Source: Polyangia bacterium
Lineage (GTDB): Bacteria > Myxococcota_A > Polyangia > Palsa-1104 > SHYY01
Assembly: GCA_036263495.1 (NCBI GenBank)
Contig: DATAGU010000224.1
Coordinates: 55,408 to 119,407, forward strand
DNA: 64,000 bases
Direction of reading: 5' to 3'
Numbering within the stretch: the stretch's first letter is position 1; each line of letters starts with the position of its first letter. Position numbers and translations under genes: made by a program. Below, piece by piece: positions 1 through 18,083 of the stretch. Under the pieces are notes generated by a model. It was not told the DNA's origin. It worked only from the letters and a program-made list of their open reading frames with translations, and ran no database searches.

Positions 1-929
1 TCATCCTCATCTCCGACGGTCTCAACGAGCGCATGGATCGCCAGACCTTCATCAAGCTCGGCGAGGACGCGGCGCGCCTGCGCATCCCCATCCACACCAT
101 CGCCTTCTCGCCCATCGACTCCCGCGGCCCCCTCCTCAACCTCGGCGACCTGTCCAAGCGTTCGGGCGGGACCTTCCGCTGGGCCGAGAACCTGGCCGAC
201 ATCAAGCACGAGTTCGGCACCCTCGCCGACGAGGTGCGGCGCCAGTATGTGCTCACCTTCAAGACCGACATCGACGCGCCGTCCCTCGAAAAATTCCACT
301 TCGCCCTGCAGTGCGGCGAGCTGCGCTCGAACGTCCTGACCGGCACGGGCGTCCGCGTCCTGCACGGGCCCGAGGGCGGCGGGCTCCGCTGGTACTGGTG
401 GGTCCTCATCGGCGTGGGCGGCGGCCTCGTCACGCTCTACCTCGTGGGTCTCCTCCTCATGCGTCGCGGGCGCGTGGCGCAACCCGGCGCGATGCCGGTG
501 ACCGCGGCGGCCGGCGGCCAGAGCGTGCCCGTCGGGCGCGCAGCGGCGGCCGCGCGCCCCTCGGCCCCCTTGGCCGCCGCCGTCTCGCAGAGGGCCCCCG
601 CCGCGGCACCAGCGGCGCATGCCCCGGGCGCGGCGAGCGGCGTCCTCGTCGCCGTCACCGGCCCGCTGGCGGGGCGGCGCTACCCCGCGCTCGAGCGGCT
701 CACCATCGGCCGAGGTGCCCAGAACACCATCGACACCGGCGAGGATCCCTCGGTCTCGCGCCAGCACTGCGAGGTGCGCCGCGAGGGCGGCGTCCTCGTG
801 GTCCAGGACCTCGGTTCGAGCGCGGGCACCTGGGTCAACGGTCGGCGCCTCGCCGCGCCGCACCGCCTCGCCGACAACGACCTCGTGCGCGTCGGCGAGA
901 ACACGCAGTTCAAGTTCCGGGTCGAGTAG
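1..929 (+). CDS. VWA domain - single TM - FHA domain protein (3' part; N-terminus lies upstream of window)
   Basis: Frame runs in from position 1 (IILISDGLNE is a VWA-type MIDAS-region motif); hydrophobic TM segment WYWWVLIGVGGGLVTLYLVGLLL followed by basic MRRGR; Ala/Pro-rich linker; C-terminal FHA-like block (RLTIGRG..N.I.....VSRQHCEV....GGVLVVQDLGSSAGTWVNGRRL....L...DLVRVG); stop TAG 927-929. Confidence 0.75.
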   Translation, partial: ILISDGLNERMDRQTFIKLGEDAARLRIPIHTIAFSPIDSRGPLLNLGDLSKRSGGTFRWAENLADIKHEFGTLADEVRRQYVLTFKTDIDAPSLEKFHFALQCGELRSNVLTGTGVRVLHGPEGGGLRWYWWVLIGVGGGLVTLYLVGLLLMRRGRVAQPGAMPVTAAAGGQSVPVGRAAAAARPSAPLAAAVSQRAPAAAPAAHAPGAASGVLVAVTGPLAGRRYPALERLTIGRGAQNTIDTGEDPSVSRQHCEVRREGGVLVVQDLGSSAGTWVNGRRLAAPHRLADNDLVRVGENTQFKFRVE

Positions 930-937
930 GCGGAGCC

Positions 938-2887
938 ATGAGCGAGAACTCCAGCATCATCATCTGCGACCAGCGCTTCGACGTCGGGCAGCGGGTCATC
1001 ACCTGGCAAGAAGACCCCATGTACAGCGCCTACACGCCGCACTGCGTGTTCAATCCCAATCAGGTGGGACCCGACAACCCGGCCATCCCCGGCGGCAACA
1101 CCCTGCGCTACCGCGAGCGCCGCCTGCTCGGCGCCGACCGCTCCCTCGGCCGCCTGCAGCAGATCTTGAAGCAGTTCGTCCTCCATCTCGACGGCCTCAC
1201 CAACTCGCGCGACACCTTCAAGGTCCTGCACGACGAGCGCGGCCTGTCGGTGCACTTCCTCATCGACAACAACGGCGACATCTACCAGACGCTCGACCTG
1301 CGCGACTGCGGCTTTCACGCCTCGGGCGTCAACGAGATCTCGATCGGCGTCGAGATCTGCAACCGCGGCGACGCGAAAAAGGACACGCGGGACGTCTATC
1401 ACGGCAAACGCGACAAGGTGAACTGCGTCATCAACGGCTACCAGTACCTGTCCTACGCGTTCACCGAGGCGCAGATGCAGGCCATGGTGAACCTCGGCCG
1501 CTGCCTGGCGCGCGTCCTGCCCGGCCTGCCCCAGGAGTATCCGCGCGACCCCGGGGGCGGGCAGCTCTGGGACACCATCAACGGCGACCCGCGCGACTTC
1601 GCCGGCTACCTCGGCCACTACCACACCACCGCGCGCAAGTGGGATCCGGGCCCCTTCGACTTCCAGAAGTTCGTCTCCCAGATCCGCGGCCGGCTGTACT
1701 TCCCCCTCGTCCCCGGCCAGGACCAGGCCGAGGTGCCCGACGACAAGGCCGCGGCCGAGAGCGAGGCCCAGGCGCTCTACGACAACAACGAGAAGGGGGG
1801 CGACGGCGGCTACTACCCCGTCGGCCCGCTCGGCGCGAGCAAGCTTTGGCACGGCGGCGTCCACCTGCGCGCCGATCGCGGGCGGTCCGTGGTGGCGCCC
1901 CTCGGCGGTCGGATCGTGGCCGCGCGCATGAAGGCCGAGGACGACTGGCCGGCCATCGGCTCGAACAACATGGTGCTCCTGCGCCACGACGTCGCCGTGG
2001 GCGCCGCGCAGATCCGGTTCTGGACCCTGCTCCACCACCTCGACGCCGAGAGCGAGGACAACGCCGAGGCCCCCGGGTGGCTGCGCAACGGCCGCGGCCG
2101 GCCCTGGTGGAACGCGCTCAAGGGCGGCGAGGTGGCGCTCCTCGACGAGCCGGTGAACGCCGGCGAGGTCGTCGGACACTTCGGCGAGGCCGGCCCGCGC
2201 TCGGCGCGCACCGGGCAGATCCACTTCGCCATCTTCGCCGCCGACGAGATCCACGCCCAGGTGGACCCGAGCTTCTGGGCGCGGGTCGACGGCGTGCGCG
2301 GCGGGCGCTTCTGTGCCGAAGAGAGCATCACCGCGTACATGGACTTCAACCGCAACGGGATCCTCCAGCCCAGGGAACTGGTGGGGTTCTTCCGCGATCC
2401 CTCGCCGCAGTCGAAGAAGGCGCGTGAGACCTTCCGTCGCCTGGCGGTGCGGCACCTGTCGGAGTGGGCGGACAACGGGGGCGACTTCCTCCGCGAGCTC
2501 ACCCGCTCGCGTGAGATCCGCGCCCTCATCCCCGGCTCCCCCTCCCGCATCCGCCAGGTCTACGCCGACCAGATCGAGTCCATGTTCTGGTGGACGGACG
2601 AGGTCGGGCAGCACGCCGGGCTGCCGCCCGACAAGCTCGTCTGGAGCTACCACCCGATCACCTTCATGCTGTGGCTGCACGACAAGCTCAAGGGCGAGCC
2701 CGTCGTCGCCAAGGCGCCGCCCAAGCAAGGCAAGGCGCCGCCGCCCGACATCCAGGGCGGCGACTTCGCCGAAGGCGAGAGCGACTCGGCCGGCGGCTTC
2801 TTCTTCGACGACGAAGACGCCCTCTTCGGCGAGGCCGCCAAGAACCTCACGCTGGAGCAGCTGGCCGGCGGCTACCCCGACAAGTAA
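938..2887 (+). CDS. cytoplasmic Amidase_2 (AmpD/PGRP-type N-acetylmuramoyl-L-alanine amidase) domain fused to degenerate LytM/M23-like domain, 649 aa
   Basis: ATG 8 nt after upstream stop with GGAG just before; motifs SVHFLIDNNGDIYQ, NEISIGVEI and GHYHTTARKWDPGPFDF match Amidase_2 zinc/active-site blocks; central segment WHGGVHL..LLHHL..GQIHFAIF resembles M23 but HxxxD and HxH positions are substituted; no signal peptide; C-terminal ~200 aa unassigned. Confidence 0.7.
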   Translation: MSENSSIIICDQRFDVGQRVITWQEDPMYSAYTPHCVFNPNQVGPDNPAIPGGNTLRYRERRLLGADRSLGRLQQILKQFVLHLDGLTNSRDTFKVLHDERGLSVHFLIDNNGDIYQTLDLRDCGFHASGVNEISIGVEICNRGDAKKDTRDVYHGKRDKVNCVINGYQYLSYAFTEAQMQAMVNLGRCLARVLPGLPQEYPRDPGGGQLWDTINGDPRDFAGYLGHYHTTARKWDPGPFDFQKFVSQIRGRLYFPLVPGQDQAEVPDDKAAAESEAQALYDNNEKGGDGGYYPVGPLGASKLWHGGVHLRADRGRSVVAPLGGRIVAARMKAEDDWPAIGSNNMVLLRHDVAVGAAQIRFWTLLHHLDAESEDNAEAPGWLRNGRGRPWWNALKGGEVALLDEPVNAGEVVGHFGEAGPRSARTGQIHFAIFAADEIHAQVDPSFWARVDGVRGGRFCAEESITAYMDFNRNGILQPRELVGFFRDPSPQSKKARETFRRLAVRHLSEWADNGGDFLRELTRSREIRALIPGSPSRIRQVYADQIESMFWWTDEVGQHAGLPPDKLVWSYHPITFMLWLHDKLKGEPVVAKAPPKQGKAPPPDIQGGDFAEGESDSAGGFFFDDEDALFGEAAKNLTLEQLAGGYPDK

Positions 2888-2919
2888 TCTGCTTCGCGGG
2901 AGGGGCGTGAGTGCGGGCG

Positions 2920-3504
2920 TTACTCGCCGACCGGTTTGAAGTAGGCGCCGATCAGGCCGGTTTTTTCGACCAGAGCCTTGAACTCGGCGGAGACGAGGTC
3001 ATGGAGCAGGCACTGCTTGCACTTGAAGAGATGGTGGCCGTCGGTGCTGCCGGGTTTGAAGACGTACTTCTTCACGCTCGAGATCTGCCCATCTGAGTAT
3101 CGATCAGTGATTGAGCGCTCTTCATCGAGGCAATCGACGATGTCGAGTATGTTCACAACCTGGAATCGCCCAGGCCCATCGTAGGTGAGCGGTAAGAGTT
3201 CGATCGCGTTTCCGAGCAGGGGCGCCAACACCTCCGCCGCACGATCCGAAAAAGCCAAGCCGAGGCCCATGAGGCCGATGAAATCGACCGGTTTGCCGCG
3301 ATTCTTCCGCACCCTGGCGGGCTTCCATTCCATGGGCACCGGCTGCCACCAGTCTGCACAACGCACGCCCTTACCCGACAGCTTATTGAAGACTTTGTAC
3401 CAGGAGACGCCCGGTCGCGAGATGGATGCCAGCAGATCGTCATGCTCGTCTGGATCCGGGTCCAGGAGAAAGATTTTCGATGATGGAGCGGTGTCTTTCG
3501 TCAT
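2920..3504 (-). CDS. putative immunity protein of toxin cassette (194 aa, no family recognised)
   Basis: ATG at 3504-3502 overlaps the TGA of the upstream toxin-like ORF (ATGA); markedly lower GC than flanks (about 50% in 3061-3120); genetic position typical of immunity gene; no family recognised by eye. Confidence 0.5.
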   Translation of the reverse strand: MTKDTAPSSKIFLLDPDPDEHDDLLASISRPGVSWYKVFNKLSGKGVRCADWWQPVPMEWKPARVRKNRGKPVDFIGLMGLGLAFSDRAAEVLAPLLGNAIELLPLTYDGPGRFQVVNILDIVDCLDEERSITDRYSDGQISSVKKYVFKPGSTDGHHLFKCKQCLLHDLVSAEFKALVEKTGLIGAYFKPVGE

Positions 3505-4343
3505 GGGGGGAAGGCCCCGTTCTGTATCTCTCGCGCTAGCTTCTGCAGTTCCTCGAGGATCTTCATGCGCCCGCCGCTTTCCTCGGCCCGCCGGAGGCGA
3601 AAAATGACTGTACGAATCGCCTTGTCCGTATGGAGCCCGTGCCCCACATGCTGGCTCGGCGTGAGCACGACGCCATTGTCTATGCTGTTGATGTCGATGC
3701 CATAGTCGTCGAAGAGCACGCGGCCTTGCTCCGCCTCGCGGTGCGTGCTTGGCACGATATGGTGCACCTCCTCGCTGGAGGTCAACTGCCTGCCGAGTTT
3801 CTTCTCCAGCGCAGCGCGTAGCCGGGTGGCGTTGCCAGTCGTATTCCACTGCTGCGTCGACACGAAGCCAGGCGGCCGACCACTACCGCCACTGACCGAG
3901 TTGGTGCCGCGCAATCCCTGAGCCCGTGCCGTCTGCGCTGGCGTGAGTTCGCGCAGCGCGACGTGAAGCATCGCCGTCGCCTGTCCGAGCCGGCGAGCCT
4001 CCACGAGCGCCCAGATCTCGACTTCACTGAGCGCCAGGGTCTTGGCTGCCGCTCCGGTGCCGACCACGAGCGCCAGAGGACCGCCACCTGTGCCGGTGGT
4101 GGTCAGCGCCCAATATGCCTCCCCCGCACCCGGCCCTCGAGAGGCGCCATCCCGCAAGAACCCCACCAACCGACCGAGTCCCGACAGCTTGCCGACTTCC
4201 TTGAGGAGCTCCGGGCCATGACCCACCAGCCGGGCGGCCGTCCACGTGGTACTGACCAGCACCGCGGCCTGGATACCGGCGTTGCCGGTCGCGATGCCCT
4301 TGATCGTGTTGACGAGGCTCGCCAGGCCATGCTTCACCTCCAT
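3501..4343 (-). CDS. polymorphic-toxin C-terminal module, HNH/EndoVII-fold nuclease of AHH-like type (281 aa from first ATG)
   Basis: C-terminal block EEVHHIVPSTH...NGVVLTPSQHVGHGLH resembles the AHH family signature ([AG]HHIvP plus downstream His residues); N-terminal ~180 aa Gly/Ala/Thr-rich with no housekeeping similarity; stop overlaps downstream gene start; the longer 3501..4478 ORF prefix is Arg-rich read-through and probably not coding. Confidence 0.5.
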   Translation of the reverse strand: MEVKHGLASLVNTIKGIATGNAGIQAAVLVSTTWTAARLVGHGPELLKEVGKLSGLGRLVGFLRDGASRGPGAGEAYWALTTTGTGGGPLALVVGTGAAAKTLALSEVEIWALVEARRLGQATAMLHVALRELTPAQTARAQGLRGTNSVSGGSGRPPGFVSTQQWNTTGNATRLRAALEKKLGRQLTSSEEVHHIVPSTHREAEQGRVLFDDYGIDINSIDNGVVLTPSQHVGHGLHTDKAIRTVIFRLRRAEESGGRMKILEELQKLAREIQNGAFPP

Positions 4344-4420
4344 GCGGTGGTCAAGAGGGACCGCTCTTCGTCGAGGCAATCGACGATATCGAGCATGTTG
4401 ACGGCCTGAAAGTGCCCAGG
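4334..4420 (-). pseudogene. remnant of a second immunity-gene copy (fragment only)
   Basis: 4361-4420 aligns to 3115-3174 of the intact immunity gene at about 50 of 60 identical nt (hand alignment); in that frame it encodes FQAVNMLDIVDCLDEERS versus GRFQVVNILDIVDCLDEERS in the intact gene; frame ends at TGA 4336-4334 overlapping the toxin ATG. Confidence 0.45.
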
Positions 4421-4514
4421 ATGCCAAGCATCGCGGTCGCGCTTCTCGATCGCAGGCCGTTGCGCTCGGCACATACAAGGCACATGAAACTAAGGAGGCC
4501 GCGGCAGCCTAGCT

Positions 4515-4537
4515 AAGTCCCTGCGGCGCAGGGACTT
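4515..4537 (-). terminator. perfect 10-bp stem hairpin (aagtccctgc-ggc-gcagggactt), possible terminator of the upstream minus-strand oxidase genes
   Basis: Inverted repeat seen directly; located about 135 nt downstream of the small ORF stop on minus strand; no U-tract. Confidence 0.3.
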
Positions 4538-4671
4538 CATGAAATACCACCCAGGGAGGCAGCCCCGCTCCCCAGGAAAGCCACCGCTCTCCCGGGGGCT
4601 CACACTACCCCTAACGAGGATCTAGAACGTGACCCAGGAGAACCCAGGCAAGGCTTTTCGACTGAAGGTGT

Positions 4672-4827
4672 TCAGGTCTCGTGGGGCTGGGCGACCTGGC
4701 GGATGACCAGGTAGATGATGCCGACGATGAGGAAGGGCACGAGCAGGAAGGCGCTCACGAGCTTCAAGATGGACGAGAACTTGTCGGCGGCGGGCTGGCA
4801 GGCGCAGGCGAGGATGAGGTCGTACAT
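4672..4827 (-). CDS. small hydrophobic protein (51 aa) downstream of oxidase subunits
   Basis: Hand-translated MYDLILACACQPAADKFSSILKLVSAFLLVPFLIVGIIYLVIRQVAQPHET; one predicted TM; below ORF-track length cutoff; 22 nt after coxIV-like stop; no clear SD. Confidence 0.3.
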   Translation of the reverse strand: MYDLILACACQPAADKFSSILKLVSAFLLVPFLIVGIIYLVIRQVAQPHET

Positions 4828-4849
4828 GGCGTGACTCTACTGGGCTCGA

Positions 4850-5158
4850 TCAGTGACCCGGGAAGCGGGCGATGGCCTCGATGATGAGGACGACCGCATA
4901 GATCGGCGGAAACAGCATCGGGATCCCCACCGTCAGCTTGAGTCCGCGACGCTCGTCGGCCAGGTGCATGTAGTAGAGCGCGACGCAGCCGGCCTTGACC
5001 AGGGCCAGCGAGATGAGGAGCGCGATCATCGTGGCGCGCTGCTCCTTGAGCACCTGGGCCACGGCCACTTCGAGGGCCGTGAGGGCCGTGAGCGCCACGA
5101 AGACGATGAGGTACTTCTTCTTGTGGGAGTGCTGACCGCTTGCAGTGTGTTCCGACAT
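4850..5158 (-). CDS. cytochrome c oxidase subunit IV (prokaryotic COX4_pro family), 102 aa
   Basis: MSEHTASGQHSHKKKYLIVFVALTALTALEVAVAQ....KAGCVALYYMHL matches the bacterial subunit IV pattern; immediately downstream of subunit III. Confidence 0.65.
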   Translation of the reverse strand: MSEHTASGQHSHKKKYLIVFVALTALTALEVAVAQVLKEQRATMIALLISLALVKAGCVALYYMHLADERRGLKLTVGIPMLFPPIYAVVLIIEAIARFPGH

Positions 5159-5180
5159 GGAAGCCTCGGCCTCGAGATGA

Positions 5181-5816
5181 TCAGATGAGATAGATGAAGG
5201 TGAACACCAGGATCCACACCAGATCGACGAAGTGCCAGAACAGGCCGGCGACCTCGACGTGGCTGGCGGGCGGATGCGGGCCATCGGTGTACTTGCCGCG
5301 GAGCGCAAAGAGGAGGACCACGCTCAGATAGATGACACCCGTCAGCACGTGGAGACCGTGGAACCCGGTCACCGTGAAGAACGTCCCCGGGAAGCGGATG
5401 TCGCCTCCTTGGAAGATGGAGCCGGAGAGCGTCATGTGCTGCTCATGGATGAGGTGCGTGTACTCGAAGACCTGGCCGCAGAGGAAGAACAGGCCGCCCA
5501 GGACCGTGAGGCCGAGGTAGGTGCACAGCGCCTTCTTGTTCCGCTCCTGCGCCCCGGCCAGCGCCATGACCATCGTCACGCTGGAACAGATGAGCACGAA
5601 GGTCATGAGGGCCGTGAAGTTGATCCCGAGGTGCCGCGTGGGGTCGGGCCAGGAGTGCGAACCAGAGCGCTGAATGCCGTAGTTGAGCAGCAAGCCGGCG
5701 AAGGACATTCCGTCCGTCAGGAGGAAGATCCACATCCCGACCTTGCCGTGGGTCGCTCCTTCGAAGCTGAAGCCCTCCTCGCGGTGCATCGAGGGCGCGG
5801 CGGCGGATTGGCTCAT
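5181..5816 (-). CDS. ctaE: cytochrome c oxidase subunit III
   Basis: Seven-TM protein ending LFWHFVDLVWILVFTFIYLI (classic Cox3 C-terminal motif), GMWIFLLTD near N-terminus; ATG at 5816 preceded by GGAGG; ORF-track start 5825 is TTG. Confidence 0.85.
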   Translation of the reverse strand: MSQSAAAPSMHREEGFSFEGATHGKVGMWIFLLTDGMSFAGLLLNYGIQRSGSHSWPDPTRHLGINFTALMTFVLICSSVTMVMALAGAQERNKKALCTYLGLTVLGGLFFLCGQVFEYTHLIHEQHMTLSGSIFQGGDIRFPGTFFTVTGFHGLHVLTGVIYLSVVLLFALRGKYTDGPHPPASHVEVAGLFWHFVDLVWILVFTFIYLI

Positions 5817-6090
5817 TGCGGTCAAGACCTCCGGTATCGGGGTTCAGGGACGGGCGGACACTATCACACTCATCCGCAGGGGACAACTCCGCCGCGCACC
5901 TCCCCGAACGTAGAGATCTCATGGAGTTGGGCCCACATCCGGGGTCTTGGGCCCATGCCCTCGTCCACCCCTTGGAGGGGGCTCGGGGGGAGGTCGAAGG
6001 CTCGGGTGAGCCCCCCTGGAATGTCCGGTGGCGAATACGGCAGACAGGCTGATGGCGGCCCGATCCGATCCTTTCGGGCCGGGCCCGGCC

Positions 6091-7320
6091 TCAAAGGAGG
6101 TAGTGCTTGGCCTCGTTCTGGCGTGCGATGACCTGCAGCAGGTCCTGCTCCCGCACCGTGGCCACCTGCTTGAGGTGCTCCAGGACCGCGGGGAACTCCT
6201 GGGCGATCGCCTCGAAGTCGGCGCGGCACACCGTGAGCGTGACCGCCGTGGTGATGGCCCGCACCGTGGCCGTCGCCGGGCGCAGCGTCAGCACCGAGAT
6301 CTCGCCCACCACGTCGCCCGGGTGGAGCACCGCGACCTGGAAGGCCGCCTGCCGCTCGGTCGCCTTCTCCACCGACAGCTGCCCCGAGGCCAAGACGAAC
6401 AGCGTGTCATTGGCCGCGCCCTCCTCGATGACGACCTGACCGGCATCGAAGGTCCGGGGCGTGAAGCGGCGCAGGAGCGCCTCGCGCGCGGACATGCCGA
6501 GCCCTGCCAGGAGCGGCGAGGTGAGCGCCAGGTTATGCAGCAGGCGCTCGCGGGTATGCTCGGCCAAGACCGCCTTGAACGAGGGCTCGGCCGCCGCCAG
6601 CTCCTCCAGCCCCTGGCGCGTCAGCTCGAGCAGCAGGCAATCCACCTCGCACGTCGCGCGCGCCGAGCGCGGCGTATTGGTGAGGAGCGCCATCTCGCCG
6701 AAGAACGCGCCCGGACCGAGCAGGTTGAGCGGCACCTCGACCGGCGACTCGGAGGAGGCCGGCCGAGAGATGCGCACGTGGCCGTTGGCGATGATGTAGC
6801 AGGTCTCGCCCTGCGAGTTGAGCTCGATGAGCCGCGTCCCCGCCGGGCAATCGAGGATCTGAAGGAACGAGACCAGGCGGCGGAAGTGCTCCTTGCTGAG
6901 CGAGTGGAAGAGCGGATAGGGCCGATGCAGCCGCGCGAACGCGCTCTGGAGCGCGGCCACCGCGCGGTCCTTGCCCTGCGGCGACGGCGGCGCGGCCAGC
7001 GGCGCCCCCGTCGGCATCACCGGCGGCGCCGGCGGGACCACGGCCTCGACATAACGCGACGCCTTGCCAAAGGACTCGGCCAGATCATCGATCAGCCGCT
7101 CGCTCGCCGTGCGGTCGAGCGCCGACAGCTCCTTGGCCGCGACCACCGCCATCGGCAGGTGGCCCGAGATCATGAACGCGCGCCCCGCCAACTGGAGAGC
7201 GAGGGCCGCGTGCTGCGTGTCCTGATCGAGCTGCAGTTGCTGAGCGAGCGCGCGGTAGGCCACGCCGTCGAGTGGATTGCCGTCGATACGGGAGGCCAGC
7301 TCCGTGTACGAGGTCAACAT
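6091..7320 (-). CDS. protein with N-terminal unknown domain and two cyclic-nucleotide-binding (cNMP/CAP-type) domains, 409 aa
   Basis: Two occurrences of the FGE.AL-type phosphate-binding cassette (GPGAFFGEMALL; GDVVGEISVL); upstream part of the 663-aa ORF is Arg-rich junk; GGCCCGA/TCGGGCC hairpin just downstream of stop. Confidence 0.7.
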   Translation of the reverse strand: MLTSYTELASRIDGNPLDGVAYRALAQQLQLDQDTQHAALALQLAGRAFMISGHLPMAVVAAKELSALDRTASERLIDDLAESFGKASRYVEAVVPPAPPVMPTGAPLAAPPSPQGKDRAVAALQSAFARLHRPYPLFHSLSKEHFRRLVSFLQILDCPAGTRLIELNSQGETCYIIANGHVRISRPASSESPVEVPLNLLGPGAFFGEMALLTNTPRSARATCEVDCLLLELTRQGLEELAAAEPSFKAVLAEHTRERLLHNLALTSPLLAGLGMSAREALLRRFTPRTFDAGQVVIEEGAANDTLFVLASGQLSVEKATERQAAFQVAVLHPGDVVGEISVLTLRPATATVRAITTAVTLTVCRADFEAIAQEFPAVLEHLKQVATVREQDLLQVIARQNEAKHYLL

Positions 7321-7360
7321 ACGGCCATCATAACGAAAGCCGCGAGTTTTGCAGGAGATT

Positions 7361-8134
7361 TCAGAAACGGAAGAGCGGGGCCCCGGTCTGCGAGGGCCCG
7401 CCCGGCAGGGCCGTGAGGTCGAAGTCGGGGTAGTGGCGCGGGCGTGAGGCGCTCGAAGCCCCGGCCACGAGCGCGACGATCCCCACCGTCGCCGCAGCGC
7501 CCGCGACGACCGGAAACACGATCCACCAGCGACTCTTCTTGACCTTGGTCTGCGCCACCACCACCGGCCGCGGCGCCGCACCCCGACCGACGCCAGCGAC
7601 CGCCGGCCTCCCCGGAGCAGCCACGAACGGCGGCCGAGCATACGCCCCTCCCACCGGCGCCGTGCCCGGAGGCGCCACAGCCCCCACCGGAGCCGCCCCC
7701 GAAGGGGCCACCGCAACCCCCGGCGTCCCCACCGGAGGCGCCCCGGTCCCGAGCGGCGGGACCGCGGCCTGGGCCCCATCGCAATGGAGCCGGGTCTCGA
7801 TCTCCGCGCGCTCGGGCGCCTGCGGCACCTGCTCGAAGTAGCGGCGATAATACTTACAAGCCGCGTTGACCCTCCCCAGCTGCTCGTAGGCGAGAGCGAT
7901 ATTGAAATCGAGCAGCGGCGCCGGCTTGAGGAGCTGCGCCGCCTTCCACTCCTGGATCGCCGTCGTGAAATCGCCCGCCTCATACGCCGCGCTCCCCGCC
8001 TGGAAGCGAAGCTGCGCCTCGTCACCGCCCGCCGCCTGCGCCGCCTGCGGTTCCCCGCGCGCCGCCAGCGGAGCCAGAACAAAGAGCGACGCGCAGAGCG
8101 CCACCCGCCAAAGAGACTGCCGATAACCCATCAA
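7361..8134 (-). CDS. secreted TPR-like/Pro-rich protein with C-terminal TM anchor
   Basis: Signal-peptide-like N-terminus (LWRVALCASLFVLAPLAARG), TPR-like helix pair (AAYEAGDFTTAIQEWKAA...ALAYEQLGR), Pro/Ala/Gly-rich spacer, KKSRWWIVFPVVAGAAATVGIVALVAG TM. Confidence 0.5.
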   Translation of the reverse strand: MMGYRQSLWRVALCASLFVLAPLAARGEPQAAQAAGGDEAQLRFQAGSAAYEAGDFTTAIQEWKAAQLLKPAPLLDFNIALAYEQLGRVNAACKYYRRYFEQVPQAPERAEIETRLHCDGAQAAVPPLGTGAPPVGTPGVAVAPSGAAPVGAVAPPGTAPVGGAYARPPFVAAPGRPAVAGVGRGAAPRPVVVAQTKVKKSRWWIVFPVVAGAAATVGIVALVAGASSASRPRHYPDFDLTALPGGPSQTGAPLFRF

Positions 8135-11948: not shown

Positions 11949-12428
11949 ATGTCGAGCATTGCCGGAGATGCGATCGAGCGCCGTTTCCTTTTGCTTCGGG
12001 TGGGCCCCCGATTATGTACGGTTTCATTGGAATCTGTCATTGAGACCTTGCGGCCCTTGCCCATCGAGGGGCTGGCCGATGCGCCCCGGTTCATCGAGGG
12101 GTTGAGCGTCGTGCGGGGGGAGCCGGTGCCGGTGGTGAACCTGGCGGCGCTCCTCGGGGACGCGACGATCCGGCCGGCACGACGCTTCGTCATGGTGCGG
12201 GCGGGGCACGGACGGCGGATCGCGCTGGCCGTGGAGGACGTGGTGAGCGTGGTGCGCCTCGACGAGGCGATGTTCCGGGAGAGGCCGCCGCTCCTGCAGG
12301 AGGCGCTGCCCGGGTGCGTGGAGCGGCTCGGGGCACTCGACGGCAAGCTGGTCGCGACGCTGGCGACGATGCGCATCCTGCCCGAGGAGGCCTGGGGCGG
12401 GATGGCCCTCGCGGGGGGCGGCCGATGA
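11949..12428 (+). CDS. cheW: chemotaxis coupling protein CheW
   Basis: CheW-like domain (RRFLLLRVGPRLCTVSLESVIE...FIEGLSVVRGEPVPVVNL); ATG at 11949; stop overlaps cheR start (ATGA). Confidence 0.8.
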   Translation: MSSIAGDAIERRFLLLRVGPRLCTVSLESVIETLRPLPIEGLADAPRFIEGLSVVRGEPVPVVNLAALLGDATIRPARRFVMVRAGHGRRIALAVEDVVSVVRLDEAMFRERPPLLQEALPGCVERLGALDGKLVATLATMRILPEEAWGGMALAGGGR

Positions 12429-13918
12429 CCCCCGTGATGGGAGGGGACGGGCTGGCGCTCCTGCAGGCCCGCATCGAGGAGCGTTTTGGTCTGTGCTGCT
12501 CGGAGTGGCAGCGGGAGCGGCTCGCCGCGCTGATGGCGCGCCGCGGTTCGGCGGGAGGCCCAGGGCGGGAAGCGGAGGAGGAGCCTTCTTCGCAGGCGCT
12601 GCACGGGGCGGCGATGCAGCTGGTGGTGGGCGAGACGCACTTCTTCCGCGACGTGGCGCAGCTCGATCTCGTGGCCGAGGTGGCACTGCCGGCGCTGCTC
12701 GCGGCGCGCGGCGGGCCGGTGCGGATCCTGTCGGTGGGCTGCTCCTCGGGGGAGGAGCTGTATTCGCTGGCGATCCTATTGCGGGAGCGGGGGCTGCTCG
12801 GGCCGGAGCGCGTGGTCCTGCGGGGGATGGATCTCAACCCCGGGGCGATCCGCGCGGCCCGGCGCGCGCGCTACGACGCCTGGGCGCTGCGGGGTCTGTG
12901 TCCGGCGCGGCGCGACCGCTGGTTCGAGCGCCACGGCGACGAGTATCGGCTCGTGGAGGAGATCCGGGCGGCGGCGAGCTTCGAGGAGCGCAACCTCTTC
13001 GCGCCGGATCTCGCGCGCTGGCTGCCCGGCAGCGTCGATGTCCTCCTATGCCGGAACGTGATGATCTATTTCTCCGAGCGGGCGATGCGGCGGGCCATCG
13101 CCTGCTTCACCGAGGCGCTCGTGCCGGGCGGTTTCTTGTTCCTCGGGGCGAGCGAGACGCTGCGCGGCGTCTCGGATGCGTACGAGGTGGCGTTCGCGAA
13201 GGACGCCTGTTACTACCGCCGTCGCCGCGAGCCGGTGTCGCGGCCGGCGCGGCTCACGCCCCGGACCGAGGAGGCGCTCCAGCCGCCGTTCGTGCCTGCC
13301 AGGGTGGGGGGAGAGGCAGCGCACCCGGGCCGGGCGCCGCTCGAGCGGGTGGGGCGAGGGTCGGACGGAGCGGGAGAGGCGCTGTGGAGCGCACGACCTG
13401 AGGCGGGGGCCGAGCGAGCGCTGCTCGGGCCGCTCCTCGATCTCTTCGAGGCTGAGCGCTTCGACGCCGCGCTCGCGCACATCGCCGCGCTGCCGGCGCG
13501 CGAGGCGACACGGCCTGGGGTGCAGCTGGCGCGCGCCGCCGCGCTCACGACCTGCGGCCGCCTCGGGGAGGCGGAGCACGTCTGCGCGGAGCTACTGATG
13601 AAGGAGGGGTACGCGGCCAAGGTGCACTTCCTGCTCGGGCTATGCCACGAGGCGGGCGGCGATCCCGGGGCCGCGCTGCGGCACTACCGGGAGGCCACCC
13701 TCCGCGATCCGGGCTTTGCCATGGGGCACCTGCATCTGGGTCTCCTCGCCGGGCGGCGGGGGGACACGGTCACGGAGCGCATGGCCCTGCGGGTCGCCGC
13801 GAGCCAGCTGCCGTATGAGCGGCGCGACCGGCTCCTCCTCTTCGGAGGCGGCTTTGGCCGGGGCGCTCTCATCGAGATGGCGCGCGCGCGGCTGTGCGCG
13901 CTGGGAGAGGTGCATTGA
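12425..13918 (+). CDS. cheR: chemotaxis protein methyltransferase CheR with C-terminal TPR region
   Basis: CheR N-terminal domain and SAM-binding fold (VRILSVGCSSGEELYSLAILL, LLCRNVMIYF); C-terminal TPR-like repeats (HFLLGLCHEAGGDPGAALRHYREA). Confidence 0.85.
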   Translation: MTPVMGGDGLALLQARIEERFGLCCSEWQRERLAALMARRGSAGGPGREAEEEPSSQALHGAAMQLVVGETHFFRDVAQLDLVAEVALPALLAARGGPVRILSVGCSSGEELYSLAILLRERGLLGPERVVLRGMDLNPGAIRAARRARYDAWALRGLCPARRDRWFERHGDEYRLVEEIRAAASFEERNLFAPDLARWLPGSVDVLLCRNVMIYFSERAMRRAIACFTEALVPGGFLFLGASETLRGVSDAYEVAFAKDACYYRRRREPVSRPARLTPRTEEALQPPFVPARVGGEAAHPGRAPLERVGRGSDGAGEALWSARPEAGAERALLGPLLDLFEAERFDAALAHIAALPAREATRPGVQLARAAALTTCGRLGEAEHVCAELLMKEGYAAKVHFLLGLCHEAGGDPGAALRHYREATLRDPGFAMGHLHLGLLAGRRGDTVTERMALRVAASQLPYERRDRLLLFGGGFGRGALIEMARARLCALGEVH

Positions 13919-14475
13919 AGAGTCGATCGGGTTCGCCAGAGGAGCAGCTCGCGGCCCTGCGCCGGAGTTTCGACGAGTCGTTTGCCTCGCCGCCCGCGGT
14001 CGACGACCGGGTGCGACAGAACATGCTGGCGATCCGCGCCGGCGGCCGGCGTCTGGTCGTCCCGGTGGCGCGGCTGGCGGGGGTGGAGGCGAGGCGGAAG
14101 ATCGTGGCCTTGCCCGGCGCGAGCGGGGGGCTGCTCGGGGTCGCCGGGGTGCGCCGGCGACTGGTCGCGGTCTATGGGCTGGCGGAGCTGCTCGGGGAGG
14201 CGCGGGGCCAGACCGAGCCGCGCTGGTTCCTCCTGGTCGGCCGCAACGCCGATACGGCCCTCGCGATCGAGGAGCTGGTGTCCTACCTGCAGGTGGATGA
14301 CAGCGTGCTGCGGCCGGCGGCGGAGGCGGCGGCGGGCCACCGCTATGTGCGCGAGGTGCTGGCGCGCGGCACGGCGCTGTGGAGCGTGCTCGACGTGCCG
14401 CTCGTGCTCGAGGATCTGGCGCGAGCGCGGCCGGCCGAGGGTCTGCACCCGCTCGACGCCGGGACGCCCTCATGA
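13894..14475 (+). CDS. second CheW-like coupling protein
   Basis: CheW-like fold (RQNMLAIRAGGRRLVVPVARLAGVEA...); GTG start per ORF track, start uncertain; stop overlaps mcp ATG (ATGA). Confidence 0.7.
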   Translation: MRAGRGALKSRSGSPEEQLAALRRSFDESFASPPAVDDRVRQNMLAIRAGGRRLVVPVARLAGVEARRKIVALPGASGGLLGVAGVRRRLVAVYGLAELLGEARGQTEPRWFLLVGRNADTALAIEELVSYLQVDDSVLRPAAEAAAGHRYVREVLARGTALWSVLDVPLVLEDLARARPAEGLHPLDAGTPS

Positions 14476-15941
14476 AGCGCTGGACCCTGGGACAGCAGAT
14501 CGGGATCGGTCTCCTCCTGCCGATCCTGGTCCTGGCCGGCCTCGGCCTGTTCTCCTACTGGAGCACGCAGCACCTGCTCCAGATGAACAACGGGGTGGGC
14601 CAATCGCACGACGCGCTGGCCGCGGTGAATCAGGTGGTGTTGACGCTCACGGAGGTGGAGACCGGGCAGCGGGGGTACATCATCACCGGCAAGGAGGAGT
14701 ACCTCGAGCCGAGGCGCGAGGCGCTCGAGAGGCTCGAGACTCACCTCGAGCGGCTGCGGAAGCTGATAGAGGACCATCCGGGGCAACAGCGGCGCCTCGA
14801 GGAGCTGCGCGGGTCCATCCAGAGCCGGATGGCCGAGCTGGTCAAGGTCCTCGAGCTGCGGCAGCGCGAGGGGCTGGAGTCGGCGGCGCGGCGGCTCTCG
14901 GAGGGGCGCGGCAAGAGGGACATGGACAGGATTTACGGCGTGGCCCGCGAGATGGCCCGCGCCGAGGAGGAGCGGCTGCAGGAGCGCGTCCAGGACGCCG
15001 ACGCCGCGGCCCGTCGGGTGACGAGCGTCCTCCTCTTCGGGTCGTTGTTCGCGGTGCTGGTGGTGTTCTCCGCCGGCCTGTTCATCGTGCGCGGCCTCGA
15101 CCTGCAGATCGGCACGGTGGTGCACCACCTGCAAAGCTCGGCGGCCGAGCTGCAAGCCTCGGCCACGCAGCAGGTGCGGGGGGCCAAGGGGCAGGCGGCG
15201 ACGACGACCGAGGTGTCGACGACGATGCACGAGCTGGTCTCGACCTCGCGTCAGATCGCCGAGAGCGCGCAGCGGGTCACGGTGCTGGCGAACGAGACCA
15301 CGGCGGTGGCGCAGACGGGCGACGTGACGGTGCAGGCGGCGCAGGAGGCGATGGAGGTGGTGCGCCGGCAGATCGACCGGGTGGTGCTGCACATGCTGGA
15401 CCTCGGCAAGCGGTCGCAGGAGATCGGCGGGATCCTCGACATCATCAATGAGCTCGCGGAGCAGACCAACATCCTGGCCATCAACGCCACGATCGAAGCG
15501 GCCGGGGCGGGGGATTCGGGGCGGCGCTTCGCGGTGGTGGCGGACGAGATCCGCAAGCTGGCCGACCGCGTGGGCGGGTCGACCAAGGACATCCGCTCGC
15601 TCATCGAGGAGATCCGCGCGGCGGCCAACACGACGGTGATGGCGACCGAGGACGGCTCGAAGGCGGTGGAGGCGAGCGCGCGCAAGTTCGGGGAGGTGGC
15701 GCAGAACTTCCGCAACATTGCGGGGTACGTGGCCAACACGGCGCAGGCGTCGCGCGAGATCGAGCTCAGCACCAAGCAGCAGACCACGGCGGTCGAGCAG
15801 GTGAGCACGGCCGTGGGCGAGGTGGCGCAGACGGCGCGGGAGACGGAGGGGAGCTCGACGCGCACGACGCAGGCGGCGGGGCAGCTCGTGGAGTTGTCGA
15901 ACCAACTGCTACGGCTCATCCGGCGCGAGGCCAGGGTCTGA
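14472..15941 (+). CDS. methyl-accepting chemotaxis protein with CHASE3-type periplasmic sensor, HAMP and MCP signalling domain
   Basis: N-terminal TM, CHASE3-like coiled region (QVVLTLTEVETGQRGYIITGKEEYLEP), second TM, HAMP, highly conserved MCP hairpin (INELAEQTNILAINATIEAARAG..GRRFAVVADEIRKLA). Confidence 0.85.
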   Translation: MKRWTLGQQIGIGLLLPILVLAGLGLFSYWSTQHLLQMNNGVGQSHDALAAVNQVVLTLTEVETGQRGYIITGKEEYLEPRREALERLETHLERLRKLIEDHPGQQRRLEELRGSIQSRMAELVKVLELRQREGLESAARRLSEGRGKRDMDRIYGVAREMARAEEERLQERVQDADAAARRVTSVLLFGSLFAVLVVFSAGLFIVRGLDLQIGTVVHHLQSSAAELQASATQQVRGAKGQAATTTEVSTTMHELVSTSRQIAESAQRVTVLANETTAVAQTGDVTVQAAQEAMEVVRRQIDRVVLHMLDLGKRSQEIGGILDIINELAEQTNILAINATIEAAGAGDSGRRFAVVADEIRKLADRVGGSTKDIRSLIEEIRAAANTTVMATEDGSKAVEASARKFGEVAQNFRNIAGYVANTAQASREIELSTKQQTTAVEQVSTAVGEVAQTARETEGSSTRTTQAAGQLVELSNQLLRLIRREARV

Positions 15942-15965
15942 GCCCCGAGCCCCCGGACAAGAACG

Positions 15966-18083
15966 ATGGCAGATCTGGAGGTCTACTTCCGCGCAGAGGC
16001 CGCTGACCTCATCGAGCAGCTGACTCGGGGTTTATTGGATCTCGAGAAGGACGGCAGCCGGGTCGACGTGGTGGGGCATTGCTTCCGCCTCGCGCACACG
16101 CTCAAGGGGGCGGCGCGGGTGGTGGGCCGAATGCAGGTGGGGGAGCTGGCGCACGCGATGGAGGATGCGCTGGCCGCGTACCGCGATGGCTCGCTGCCGA
16201 TCGATCGGCAGTCGGTGAGCGACCTCTTGCGGCTGCTCGAGATCATTCGCCTCGAGGCGCTGGGAGAGGCGGCGCCTTCGCCGGTGGCCGCGGCGCCCGG
16301 GGCGGAGGCGGAGCACGAGGAGGCGTTCGAGACGGTCCGGGTGGCGATCGCGCAGATGGACGAGCTGCTCGATGGTCTGTCGGAGGTGGCGGTGCAGCTC
16401 GGGGCGCTGCAGGGGCGGGCGCAGCAGGTGGGCCAGATGGAGCGCCTGGCGGCGTCGTTGATCGAGCGCGTGGGCGCGGCGGGTGGGGCGGGGCTGTCGG
16501 GGCCGGCCGAGCTGCGCCCGCTGCTCGTCGAGCTGCACCGCACGTCGGGGCAGGTGCAGCGCGAGCTCGACGCGAGCCTGGCGCGCATGGCGCGCGAGCT
16601 CGGGGGGGCGCAGTCCCGGGCGAGCACGCTGCGTCTGATGCCGGTGAGCGCGATCTTCACGCCGCTCGAGCTGGCGGTGCGCGACGCCGCGCAGGCGCTC
16701 GGCAAGCGGGTGGAGTTCGAGACCGAGGGCGGGGACGCCCGGCTCGAGGGGCATGTGCTGGCCGCGGTGCACGACGCGCTCCTGCACGTGGTGCGCAACG
16801 CGGTGGCGCATGGCATCGAGGCGGAGGAGGTGCGGCGCGCGGCGGGGAAGCCGCCGGTGGGCCGCGTGCGCCTCCGGATCGAGGGTCGCGGGCGGCGCAT
16901 CGCGTTCCTGGTGACCGATGACGGCGGCGGGGTGGATCTGGCGGCGGTGCGGCAGGCGGCGGTGGCGCGGCAGGTGATCGGCGCCGCGGAGGCGGCGGCG
17001 CTCGGGGACGAGGCAGCGCTCGAGCTCGTGTTCCGCGGTGGGGTGAGCACGAGCGATACGGTGACGGGCGTGTCGGGGCGCGGGGTGGGGCTCGACGTGG
17101 TGCGCGAGACGGTGGCCCGGCTCAAGGGCGAGGCGCACATGCACACGACGCGGGGCCAGGGCGCGACGGTGACGATGGTGGTGCCGGTGTCGCTGTCGGC
17201 GATCCCGGTGCTGCTCATGGTGCAGGGGGGGGCGTCGGTGTTGATGCCGCTCGATGCGGTGCACGCGACGCGCCGCGTGGGCGGAGACGAGATCGGGCAG
17301 GGGGCGGACGGGGCGTTCCTCTTGCACGAGGGGGAGGTGGTCCCCTTTGTGCCTTTGTCGGCGCTGCTCGGCGGCGCGGTGGCCGAGCGCGCCCAGCCGG
17401 AACACCACGGTTGGATGCCGACGCTGGCTGGGCCGCAGCAGGCAGACAACCGTGGTGTTTCGGCTCAGGCGCGCTGGTCGGTGGTGATCGTGCAGGCGGG
17501 CGCGCGGCGGGTGGGGGTGGGCGTGGAGCGGCTGCTCGGTACGATGGACGTGGTGGTGAAGCCGCTGCCGCCCACGGCTCGGACGTCGGGGTTGGTGGCG
17601 GGGGCGGCCTTCGATGCGCAGGGGGACCCGCTGCTGGTGCTGGATCCGCGGGGGATCGGGGATGGGGCCCGGGTCGCGGCGGGGACACGGATGGAGAGGC
17701 CGGCGCCGCGACGCCGCCTGCCCATCCTGGTGATCGACGACTCGCTGACCACGCGGATGCTCGAGCGCAGCATCCTCGAATCGCTCGGGTACGAGGTGGA
17801 TCTGGCGGCCTCGGCCGAGGAGGGGCTCGAGCGGGCACGCCAGCGGCGCTACGGGCTCTTCATCGTGGATGTGCAGATGCCGGGCATGGACGGCTTCACG
17901 TTCACCGAGGTGACGCGGGCGGACGCCGAGCTCGGCGCGGTGCCGGTGATGCTGGTGACGTCGCAGTCCTCGCCGGCGGACCGGCACCGCGGCATGGCGG
18001 CGGGGGCCTCGGCCTACATCGTCAAGGGGGAGTTCGATCAGCGGCAGTTCGTCGGCCGGGTCGCGGAGCTCCTGGGAGGATGA
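15966..18083 (+). CDS. cheA: hybrid histidine kinase CheA with C-terminal receiver domain
   Basis: HPt (CFRLAHTLKGAARVVG), dimerisation, HATPase (GRGVGLDVVRE), CheW-like domain, and C-terminal REC (ILVIDDSLTTR...FIVDVQMPGMDG). Confidence 0.9.
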   Translation: MADLEVYFRAEAADLIEQLTRGLLDLEKDGSRVDVVGHCFRLAHTLKGAARVVGRMQVGELAHAMEDALAAYRDGSLPIDRQSVSDLLRLLEIIRLEALGEAAPSPVAAAPGAEAEHEEAFETVRVAIAQMDELLDGLSEVAVQLGALQGRAQQVGQMERLAASLIERVGAAGGAGLSGPAELRPLLVELHRTSGQVQRELDASLARMARELGGAQSRASTLRLMPVSAIFTPLELAVRDAAQALGKRVEFETEGGDARLEGHVLAAVHDALLHVVRNAVAHGIEAEEVRRAAGKPPVGRVRLRIEGRGRRIAFLVTDDGGGVDLAAVRQAAVARQVIGAAEAAALGDEAALELVFRGGVSTSDTVTGVSGRGVGLDVVRETVARLKGEAHMHTTRGQGATVTMVVPVSLSAIPVLLMVQGGASVLMPLDAVHATRRVGGDEIGQGADGAFLLHEGEVVPFVPLSALLGGAVAERAQPEHHGWMPTLAGPQQADNRGVSAQARWSVVIVQAGARRVGVGVERLLGTMDVVVKPLPPTARTSGLVAGAAFDAQGDPLLVLDPRGIGDGARVAAGTRMERPAPRRRLPILVIDDSLTTRMLERSILESLGYEVDLAASAEEGLERARQRRYGLFIVDVQMPGMDGFTFTEVTRADAELGAVPVMLVTSQSSPADRHRGMAAGASAYIVKGEFDQRQFVGRVAELLGG

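Follow-up and report, generated by a model that had tools for sequence, protein, structure and literature searches.

A predicted two-gene envelope module of Polyangia pairing a VWA-FHA membrane protein with a signal-less amidase and LytM-like protein

Two neighbouring plus-strand genes open the 64,000-nucleotide (nt) stretch of Polyangia bacterium DNA analysed here (contig DATAGU010000224.1, positions 55,408 to 119,407), which is called the window as a whole. Gene A encodes a membrane protein with a periplasmic VWA domain, one transmembrane helix and a cytoplasmic FHA domain. Gene B encodes a soluble, signal-less, three-domain protein resembling murein hydrolases. Judging from the comparative sequence data, A and B are a conserved two-gene envelope module of Polyangia (Myxococcota). 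The relatives examined were metagenome-assembled genomes (MAGs) or metagenome contigs throughout. The coordinates, the frames and the domain reading of the initial annotation, i.e., a VWA-transmembrane-FHA protein and a signal-less amidase fusion, were borne out by profile matches and a hydrophobicity scan.

The window begins inside gene A, and the 5' end of the gene and the DNA upstream of it fall beyond the left window edge. The 3' part present (3..929, plus strand, frame 3) comprises 308 codons and the TAG stop at 927-929. Its product begins within the periplasmic VWA domain, of which the C-terminal half is present, and continues with the transmembrane helix, an Ala/Pro-rich linker of about 80 residues and the cytoplasmic FHA domain. 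The end of the VWA domain (3..338, plus strand), its last ~110 residues, is weakly detectable in the window (TIGR03436, E=0.0017). It holds the most conserved periplasmic motif of the family, IAFSPIDSRGPLLNLGDLSKRSGGTFRW, as seen in alignments of 63 and 41 orthologues from which residue conservation in A was read; the motif AFSPIDxRGPLLNLGELSKRSNGTFRW is nearly invariant among the 63. Full-length orthologues of 491 and 511 amino acids (aa) carry a Sec-type N-terminal signal peptide followed by the VWA and FHA domains, and pass the Pfam VWA model (PF00092; 29.0 and 25.6 bits against a cut-off of 23.8). The canonical metal-ion-dependent adhesion site (MIDAS), DxSxS, is not kept across the 63 orthologues, where its positions read Q/E - x - T/S/A/G - x - D/L/E. 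The equivalent part of the window's own gene lies outside the window.

The single transmembrane helix, WYWWVLIGVGGGLVTLYLVGLLL (390..458, plus strand, aa 130-152), has a Kyte-Doolittle 19-residue mean of 2.31 and is followed by MRRGR, in line with the positive-inside rule. The same scan was applied to 58 full-length orthologues of A. All 58 have an internal transmembrane segment, and 51 also have an N-terminal hydrophobic segment. Because full-length orthologues combine a signal peptide with an internal transmembrane helix, the topology put forward by the initial annotation, with the VWA domain outside and the FHA domain inside, is supported at the level of prediction.

The FHA domain (702..896, plus strand, aa 234-298) is a clear match to its Pfam family (PF00498, 69.9 bits against a cut-off of 20.7, E=2.5e-19). 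Its predicted phosphothreonine pocket contains GR, SRQH (for SxxH) and the second Asn, and the loop reads SAG instead of TNG, with Ala in place of Asn. Among the orthologues, GK is found in 44 of 60, the Ser in 53 of 61, the His in 60 of 61 and the loop Asn in 49 of 60. Hence, Lys replaces the phosphate-binding Arg in those 44 sequences, and the pocket is otherwise largely canonical. The FHA domain of the window is the only copy with the canonical G-R among the 63 orthologues, yet it carries Ala at the conserved loop Asn.

One full-length orthologue of A was modelled with AlphaFold2 (AF2; predicted local distance difference test, pLDDT, 85.8). The model consists of an N-terminal beta-sandwich with the VWA domain, a long transmembrane helix, a disordered linker and the FHA domain. 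Fold matches of the periplasmic module were ITIH1, ArnB and BatB, as well as the VWA domain of CMG2. The FHA domain matched GarA and OdhI at 38-39% identity (root-mean-square deviation 1.1 Å), and also FhaA and ArnA. A is a bitopic inner-membrane protein with a Sec signal, a periplasmic beta-sandwich and VWA domain without canonical MIDAS, and a GarA-like cytoplasmic FHA domain. Homologues of A number 310 at the level of detection used. In two dedicated FHA models, A scored far below the cut-off: 28.9 bits against 120.25 for TIGR03354 (VI_FHA, the Fha/TagH protein of type VI secretion), where the FHA core alone aligned, and 57.4 bits against 125 for NF049868 (FhaB/FipA). Two of the best fold matches, the FHA protein ArnA and the VWA protein ArnB of Sulfolobus (PMC6509490; PDB 8s05, 5a8i), also pair an FHA with a VWA module. 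In contrast to A, they are separate cytoplasmic proteins that bind each other, while the two domains of A sit on opposite sides of the membrane and cannot touch.

Gene B (938..2887, plus strand) runs from the ATG at 938 to the TAA stop at 2885-2887 and encodes 649 aa. Its homologues number 676, of which the best 120 are full-length (~640 aa). Neither a transmembrane helix nor an N-terminal hydrophobic segment was found in any of 83 members of the B family, where the highest Kyte-Doolittle 19-residue mean was 1.38, and B itself has no twin-arginine signal. In the AF2 model of the window's B (pLDDT 81.8; predicted template modelling score 0.70), three domains are packed together, and pLDDT drops below 50 from residue 604 onwards.

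The first domain is an Amidase_2 domain of the AmpD/PGRP/T7-lysozyme type (PF01510; 1175..1654, plus strand, aa 80-239; 63.8 bits against 26, E=2.6e-17). The zinc-ligand positions H83, H227 and D236 and the catalytic E139 and K234 are invariant in the 34 aligned homologues used for residue conservation in B, and Y116 is present. These roles were assigned by motif pattern, without superposition, following the pattern of AmpD and T7 lysozyme. In the PDB, AmpD (2y2b) matched this fold best, and PGRPs and amidase endolysins came next. The second domain is LytM/M23-like (1823..2287, plus strand). Pfam Peptidase_M23 (PF01551) stays below threshold (21.9 bits against 28.7), with the first 40 profile positions alone matching, and the assignment comes from fold matches to the LytM domains of DipM, EnvC, Csd2, LytM and lysostaphin. 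Its putative metal site shows H305-x3-H309 for HxxxD and Q427-x-H429 for HxH, together with H367 and H414. All these residues are invariant or nearly so; the site is altered rather than decayed.

The rest of B consists of a helical C-terminal domain without Pfam family (2315..2695, plus strand; conserved motifs SEW, WWTDE and YHPITF) and a disordered tail (2747..2884, plus strand) with the motif FxDDEDxLFGEA...LxLxxLxxGYPD. The LxLxxLxxG[YF] part was kept in every tail inspected, including those of the Kofleriaceae type. As for Thr residues that could serve as FHA ligands, none is conserved in the disordered loop or the tail of B. The residue before DDED varies (T, M, I, F, V), and the Thr of 'NLTLEQL' in the window is Glu or Asp elsewhere. 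Sequence and model indicate that B combines a catalytically complete amidase with the LytM/M23-like and helical domains packed against it. None of A, B and the full-length A orthologue matched a PADLOC defence model. In Kofleriaceae-type loci (L077-L083 and similar), the tails read ...AEDPCNKKLxLNDLVQGFDAPEC and thus hold two Cys without counterpart in other clades.

The pairing of A and B was assessed in 80 genome loci and three metagenome loci containing B, 72 of which had at least 1.6 kb upstream of B and could be tested for A. A was scored as paired if an FHA-containing homologue lay on the same strand and ended less than 400 nt upstream of B. By this definition, A stood directly upstream of B in 55 of the 72 testable loci; the gap had a median of 10 nt, and in several loci the genes overlapped by 1-7 nt. 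Chance adjacency is thereby ruled out. The two genes are kept 0-20 nt apart even in lineages whose B is 35-60% identical to that of the window, and the flanks of the pair differ among loci. A quick neighbour-joining tree of B with midpoint root has the pair in both branches of its deepest split; in one nested B clade, A is absent within 6-10 kb. A prophage origin is ruled out by the housekeeping flanks, although phage lysins share domain types with B. The closest relative (L087, a 3.9-kb contig) has a B that is 86% identical.

In the window, the gap between A and B measures 8 nt (930..937, plus strand, gcGGAGcc). The initial annotation deduced co-translation from the GGAG at 932-935. The coupling in an operon stands, with a caveat on this argument: GGAG ends 2 nt before the ATG of B, which is short for a Shine-Dalgarno spacer. 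The coupling is better supported by the comparative data. A scan of positions 1..5000 for promoters and terminators yielded nothing informative. The named homologues of A and B come from Myxococcota MAGs labelled Polyangia, Kofleriaceae, Haliangium, Nannocystineae or 'Myxococcales', and bear generic database names ('FHA domain-containing protein', 'N-acetylmuramoyl-L-alanine amidase'). No description of the pairing was found in the literature, in agreement with the initial annotation, which had not recognised it as a described system and had proposed to check its conservation in Myxococcota and beyond.

A third gene accompanies B in most clades. Directly after B, an open reading frame (ORF) of 45-100 aa, referred to as the mini-ORF, was found in about 53 loci. 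It lies on the same strand in about 49 of them (e.g., L044 7998-8177, L079 7977-8138, L086 5599-5799, L035 7859-7990) and on the opposite strand in four (L002, L010, L011, L014; e.g., L002 12267-12440, L010 6807-6971, L014 7760-7927). In about 30 of 45 cases, its start codon and the stop of B share an ATGA or GTGA. The encoded peptide has a twin-arginine region with the consensus PTRRAFVAMLGAAAAALA, joined by a lipobox in the versions linked to type VI secretion, and an invariant C-terminus, [R/K/L/V]-W-I/F-G-H-x-stop, called WIGHx below. The twin-arginine translocation (Tat) model TIGR01409 (TAT_signal_seq) was above cut-off for two of the six mini-ORFs tested; no Pfam or NCBIfam family covered a whole mini-ORF, for which, as for A and B, databases offer nothing beyond generic names. 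The mini-ORF is kept beside B in loci where A is missing (L018, L027, L035, L085, L086) and therefore goes with B, not with A.

Murein amidases are known Tat cargo, AmiA and AmiC being examples. In the mini-ORF, the Tat signal sits on a peptide with nothing to fold, which suggests that B, folded and loaded with zinc, would be the real cargo and travel as a hitchhiker. Alternatively, the peptide might act as immunity or inhibitor peptide. The proposed route of B resembles that of the Tat hitchhikers PaoABC and HybOC (PMC4273604, PMC6708511), where a folded, metal-loaded, signal-less protein crosses the membrane with a twin-arginine partner. However, the signal-bearing partners in those systems are full enzyme subunits, whereas the partner of B would be a mini-protein of 45-80 aa consisting of a signal, a linker and WIGHx, and its gene is missing beside B in the window. 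A comparison of B residues with mini-ORF presence gave six scattered columns that are confounded with phylogeny, and thus no signal. Two candidates were rejected as mini-ORFs: a 61-aa ORF at 2911..3096 of the window is unrelated, and the 51-aa gene after B in L087 is a membrane peptide of the cox operon. Kofleriaceae-type mini-ORFs mostly end in H-C, and the B tails there have two Cys. It is conceivable that this tail and the mini-protein share a metal or disulfide link.

The rear part of B was followed separately. A search with the C-terminal 195 aa alone returned only seven truncated B fragments, and a profile search was more productive. A profile of the LytM-like end, the helical domain and the tail found 471 representatives at E<=1e-3. 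Distant relatives of 700-1445 aa join this module to Peptidase_M15_4, SLT, a pesticin-type lysozyme, SpoIID, PG_binding_1 or SH3_3, and no signal peptide was present in those inspected. Several of these domains act on the glycan strands of intact murein, and polymeric murein does not occur in the cytoplasm. The family of the rear module therefore seems to work outside the cytoplasm despite the absent signals.

Moreover, B lies inside type VI secretion system (T6SS) clusters in eight distinct loci, which belong to two separate B clades. A gene for a VWA-transmembrane protein stands alongside B in three of the eight (L021, L040, L060), and its FHA domain is absent or degenerate. B adjoins TssE-TssF-TssG in L021, L027, L040, L085 and L086, and Hcp was also detected in L040, L085 and L086. 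In L040, for instance, the order is TssB/C fusion, VWA-transmembrane protein, PPC-domain lipoprotein, lipoprotein, B, mini-ORF, Hcp, TssE, TssF, TssG and ClpV; L021, L027, L085 and L086 are arranged in a similar way. L035/L084, counted as one locus, shows Hcp, TagJ, TssE, TssF ... ClpV, VgrG ... B. In the second B clade, L060 and L054 share a coiled-coil protein, B, a lipoprotein and TssK. Upstream, L060 has a divergent operon TssC-TssB-TssA-TagJ-A, whose A-like gene gives weak VWA and FHA matches; the sequence of L054 is too short to show this operon. The VWA-transmembrane homologues of L021 and L040 stop a few residues past the membrane, without FHA domain. In these two loci, any link to B must be in the membrane or the periplasm.

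Three further features of the clusters were recorded. The T6SS clusters of Polyangia that carry B have a fused TssB-TssC sheath gene and, between the VWA-transmembrane gene and B, share a Cys-rich PPC-domain lipoprotein of ~360 aa and a lipoprotein of ~190 aa. Coordinates for these cluster features are L040 1392-3197 and 4325-5398, L021 1448-2539 and 2544-3122, L018 4885-5973 and L035 4930-5868. Directly upstream of B, a Ser/Thr kinase gene with Pkinase and PEGA domains was found in L086 (928-3483) and L027 (3948-4994), the two kinases being 70% identical. This kinase could be the missing kinase of the system.

B probably acts outside the cytoplasm, given the coupled Tat mini-ORF, the placement in T6SS clusters and the signal-less relatives with several hydrolase domains. 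The same three lines of evidence run counter to the initial annotation, where B had been called cytoplasmic for want of a signal. We consider it fairly likely that the module acts on murein outside the cytoplasm. The fuller reading adds a tie to Thr-phosphorylation signalling and, in all likelihood, to a T6SS; as a whole it is given slightly less than an even chance, and a role of the window's own pair with a T6SS is likewise held to be a tentative proposition that falls a little short of even. By analogy with TagX of Acinetobacter (PMC5061870), the module may serve a T6SS or derive from one.

According to this fuller reading, B would cut murein outside the cytoplasm. Either it opens the cell's own sacculus where an envelope-spanning machine, most likely a T6SS, assembles or fires, or it is itself delivered. 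Granted the T6SS link, the two options, opening the producer's own wall and being fired as cargo, are about evenly balanced. The first option is modelled on TagX and on MltE of enteroaggregative Escherichia coli (EAEC). Like B, both are murein cutters encoded in or with a T6SS cluster, and both are thought to let the machine through the wall. They are, however, membrane-anchored proteins or lipoproteins with export signals of their own, and each has one catalytic domain, an L,D-endopeptidase or a lytic transglycosylase, whereas B has no signal, two metallo-domains of other families and a VWA-FHA partner. In most clades, B would probably enter the periplasm by riding on the coupled mini-protein with its Tat signal and WIGHx tail. 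The lineage of the window has no mini-ORF beside B, and B may take a different route there.

Protein A, in turn, would couple murein cutting to Ser/Thr-kinase signalling. Inside the cell, the docking site of its FHA domain would be a phosphothreonine, carried by a kinase or by some component of the machine, in the way that Fha binds phospho-TssL (PMC3953482). Outside, its VWA domain would bind or sense B or the surroundings, as has been proposed for the periplasmic VWA domain of PpkA (PMC7817224). The resemblance to the VWA domain of PpkA and to the Fha proteins of type VI secretion, pointed out in the initial annotation, is supported. Indeed, PpkA (kinase, transmembrane helix, periplasmic VWA) and Fha1/Fha/TagH together place a VWA domain in the periplasm and an FHA domain in the cytoplasm across the inner membrane, as A does (PMC3953482, PMC7817224, PMC6082577, PMC12607579). 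In addition, A-like genes occur in the T6SS clusters L021, L040 and L060, and a kinase gene stands beside B in L086 and L027. Unlike these proteins, A joins the VWA and FHA domains in one chain, has no kinase domain and has a non-canonical MIDAS, and the window is without T6SS genes. Furthermore, A has a murein hydrolase as its conserved partner, and no such enzyme belongs to the known pathway.

In the more elaborate version of this model, the parts would form a trans-envelope device: the mini-protein acts as a signal peptide in trans whose WIGHx tail grips B, the VWA domain holds or switches B, and the FHA domain reads a kinase mark on the T6SS, so that the wall is opened only where and when the machine fires. 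Such a device in its entirety is regarded as improbable. Docking of the FHA domain on the amidase is unlikely to lie at the heart of the pairing. VWA-transmembrane proteins in T6SS clusters either have no cytoplasmic domain or have a degenerate FHA domain, and the disordered regions of B revealed no conserved Thr.

Several observations speak against the link between murein cutting, Thr phosphorylation and a T6SS. No tss, hcp, vgrG or clpV match was obtained in the 64-kb window, and the 6-10 kb around each of the 55 standalone pairs likewise contained no T6SS gene. One genome, MAG_MBR_AS.52, carries both a standalone B (L029), without A and without mini-ORF, and a T6SS-embedded B (L054), and the standalone form may have its own job. 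No mini-ORF was found beside B in the window, in L087, in L001 or in L004-L009, and loose patterns for WIGHx found none in the entire window. A search near the window's pair revealed no kinase or PP2C gene. The FHA pocket departs from the canon in most orthologues, with GK for GR, and the window has Ala for the loop Asn. Among single fold matches, the amidase domain fits a cytoplasmic enzyme, AmpD, best. Physical contact between A and B is a proposal, and so is, by analogy, the export of B by Tat hitchhiking. On the supporting side, the block of genes around Kofleriaceae-type pairs is made up entirely of envelope proteins, namely a DUF1287 lipoprotein, A, B, the mini-ORF and a protein resembling outer-membrane proteins. 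The initial annotation had also named an outcome that would have undone its reading, a T6SS Fha-type locus with the amidase as an unrelated neighbour. One half of this applies: sister clades do show a T6SS link, yet what is conserved at the centre of the association is the amidase itself, which is no unrelated neighbour.

The alternative that survives best, although still unlikely, is a periplasmic murein remodelling that is independent of T6SS. B would be exported, by Tat hitchhiking where a mini-ORF exists, and switched or positioned by A in the manner of FtsEX-EnvC-AmiA/B. The purpose would be growth, division, sporulation or the repair of the envelope, and the T6SS copies would represent a secondary recruitment. 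In the FtsEX system, a membrane complex passes a cytoplasmic signal on to the periplasm, where an amidase is licensed via a LytM domain (PMC10214136, PMC7668044). The fusion of amidase and LytM-like domains in B mirrors the EnvC-AmiB pairing (fold matches 4bh5 and 8c0j; PMC10214136), and the LytM domain of EnvC is itself among the fold matches. Yet the amidases differ (Amidase_2 in B, Amidase_3 in the FtsEX system), as do the inputs (an FHA domain against ATP hydrolysis) and the metal sites (His-rich and kept in B, lost in EnvC). This alternative would account for the 55 standalone pairs with housekeeping flanks, whose inheritance looks vertical, for the all-envelope block of the Kofleriaceae type, for a Tat mini-ORF translationally coupled to B, and for standalone and T6SS-embedded paralogues in one MAG. 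It is harder to reconcile with the finding of two separate B clades in T6SS clusters with a VWA gene, which can hardly be called coincidence. Nor are division or elongation genes conserved beside the pair, and the mini-ORF is missing in the lineage of the window.

A cytoplasmic role is doubtful. B would here resemble AmpD, as an enzyme or regulator for imported muropeptides or precursors, and would be docked at the membrane by the FHA domain after Thr phosphorylation, comparable to CwlM/FhaA/PknB. AmpD, a 1,6-anhydro-MurNAc-L-Ala amidase, does share with B the lack of a signal peptide, the zinc-ligand pattern and an intact K-x-D-P-G motif, and it gives the best fold match. It is, however, a single domain of ~185 aa, to which B adds an N-terminal extension, an insertion of ~60 residues and two further domains, and B scores only 17.9 bits against a cut-off of 143 in the AmpD equivalog NF008758. 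The absence of signal peptides and transmembrane helices from all 83 B proteins and the lack of a mini-ORF beside B in the window's lineage fit a cytoplasmic enzyme. On the other hand, the Tat mini-ORF is coupled to B in most clades, and the partners of the M23-like and helical module include SLT, lysozyme, SpoIID and M15 domains, which need polymeric murein. The FHA domain, for its part, is cytoplasmic and close to GarA, OdhI and FhaA, and a precedent exists in mycobacteria (PMC6180346): in CwlM-FhaA-PknB, too, the cell wall is controlled through a signal-less protein of an amidase family that is functionally tied to an FHA protein and to phosphorylation on Thr, and the FHA domain of A folds like those of FhaA, GarA and FipA. 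The likeness does not extend to the details. CwlM is an Amidase_3 regulator with a phosphorylated Thr in its tail, whereas B is an Amidase_2 protein with an intact active site, gives no Amidase_3 match and has no conserved Thr in its disordered loop or tail. The FHA partner of B is bitopic and has a VWA domain in the periplasm, and the VWA-transmembrane homologues of T6SS clusters lack the FHA domain that docking would need.

It is very improbable that B is a T6SS cargo toxin against neighbouring bacteria, with the mini-ORF product as periplasmic immunity peptide and A as a co-regulated T6SS regulator only: B is signal-less, has two lytic domains, adjoins hcp or vgrG in several clusters, is followed by a small secreted or lipoprotein ORF in the usual position of an immunity gene and has modular relatives with swapped hydrolase heads, as in polymorphic toxins, but it is also a single, vertically inherited orthologue with stable synteny across the class, unlike typical effectors, no PAAR, MIX, DUF4123 or Eag-type adaptor was seen near it in the T6SS clusters, lineages without mini-ORF, the window's included, would lack immunity, a mature peptide of 20-35 residues is unusual for an immunity protein, and the tight coupling of A and B would go unexplained.

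With respect to earlier work, three things are undescribed: the fusion of VWA, transmembrane helix and FHA in one protein, the constant pairing of this protein with an amidase-LytM enzyme that lacks a signal, and the Tat mini-ORF. The parts come from known domain families, and the logic resembles, by analogy, T6SS phospho-regulation and amidase licensing. How bacteria keep wall cutters harmless until they are needed, and how envelope machines pass the murein, are open questions outside a few model species. The A-B module is a compact and conserved candidate answer from a group of predators rich in uncultured members. It links the reading of phosphothreonine to a periplasmic VWA domain and a double hydrolase. 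If the mini-protein truly escorts the hydrolase, it would represent a new form of export, with a detachable signal peptide encoded as a gene of its own.

As for the surroundings, an AHH/Imm11 toxin pair is encoded in the first 23 kb of the window, together with cox genes, the gene of a cNMP-binding protein, a cluster of CheR, MCP and CheA genes, and purM/purN. The toxin ORF, for an AHH-family HNH nuclease (3501-4478), and the Imm11 immunity gene (within 2920-3849) separate B from the cox operon; they lie on the minus strand, in a stretch that is lower in GC content (about 2900-4660). In L087, B is directly followed by the 51-aa membrane ORF and COX4, and the toxin-immunity islet of the window, which is of the polymorphic type, therefore looks like an insertion. 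The corresponding 51-aa membrane peptide of the window (4671-4826, minus strand; MYDLILACACQPAAD...) is conserved with L087 and precedes the COX4_pro and COX3 genes of the cytochrome oxidase operon (4850-5308 and 5181-5825, both minus strand). Further on, a 663-aa protein with two cNMP-binding domains is encoded at 6091-8082 (minus strand). The region 12314-20337 (plus strand) encodes a CheR-TPR protein, a CHASE3-MCP protein, a CheA-like Hpt-HATPase-CheW-receiver protein and a 723-aa double-receiver protein.

In the Kofleriaceae-type block, the DUF1287 lipoprotein gene is found upstream of A in 30 loci, and a gene for a TolB-like PD40 protein lies on the opposite strand in 23 loci. Downstream of the mini-ORF, 34 loci encode a signal-peptide protein of ~350-370 aa with an end resembling an outer-membrane barrel. 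Coordinates of this block are, e.g., L070 1351-2388 and 6135-7256, and L082 1928-3091. A different arrangement is seen in L090 (11967-13754) and, likewise, in the L023/L088 type, where the gene for a 595-aa polytopic membrane protein overlaps the stop of B by 14 nt. Downstream of this gene in L090 come four ORFs on the same strand that have no Pfam matches; some of them resemble pieces of one frameshifted gene.

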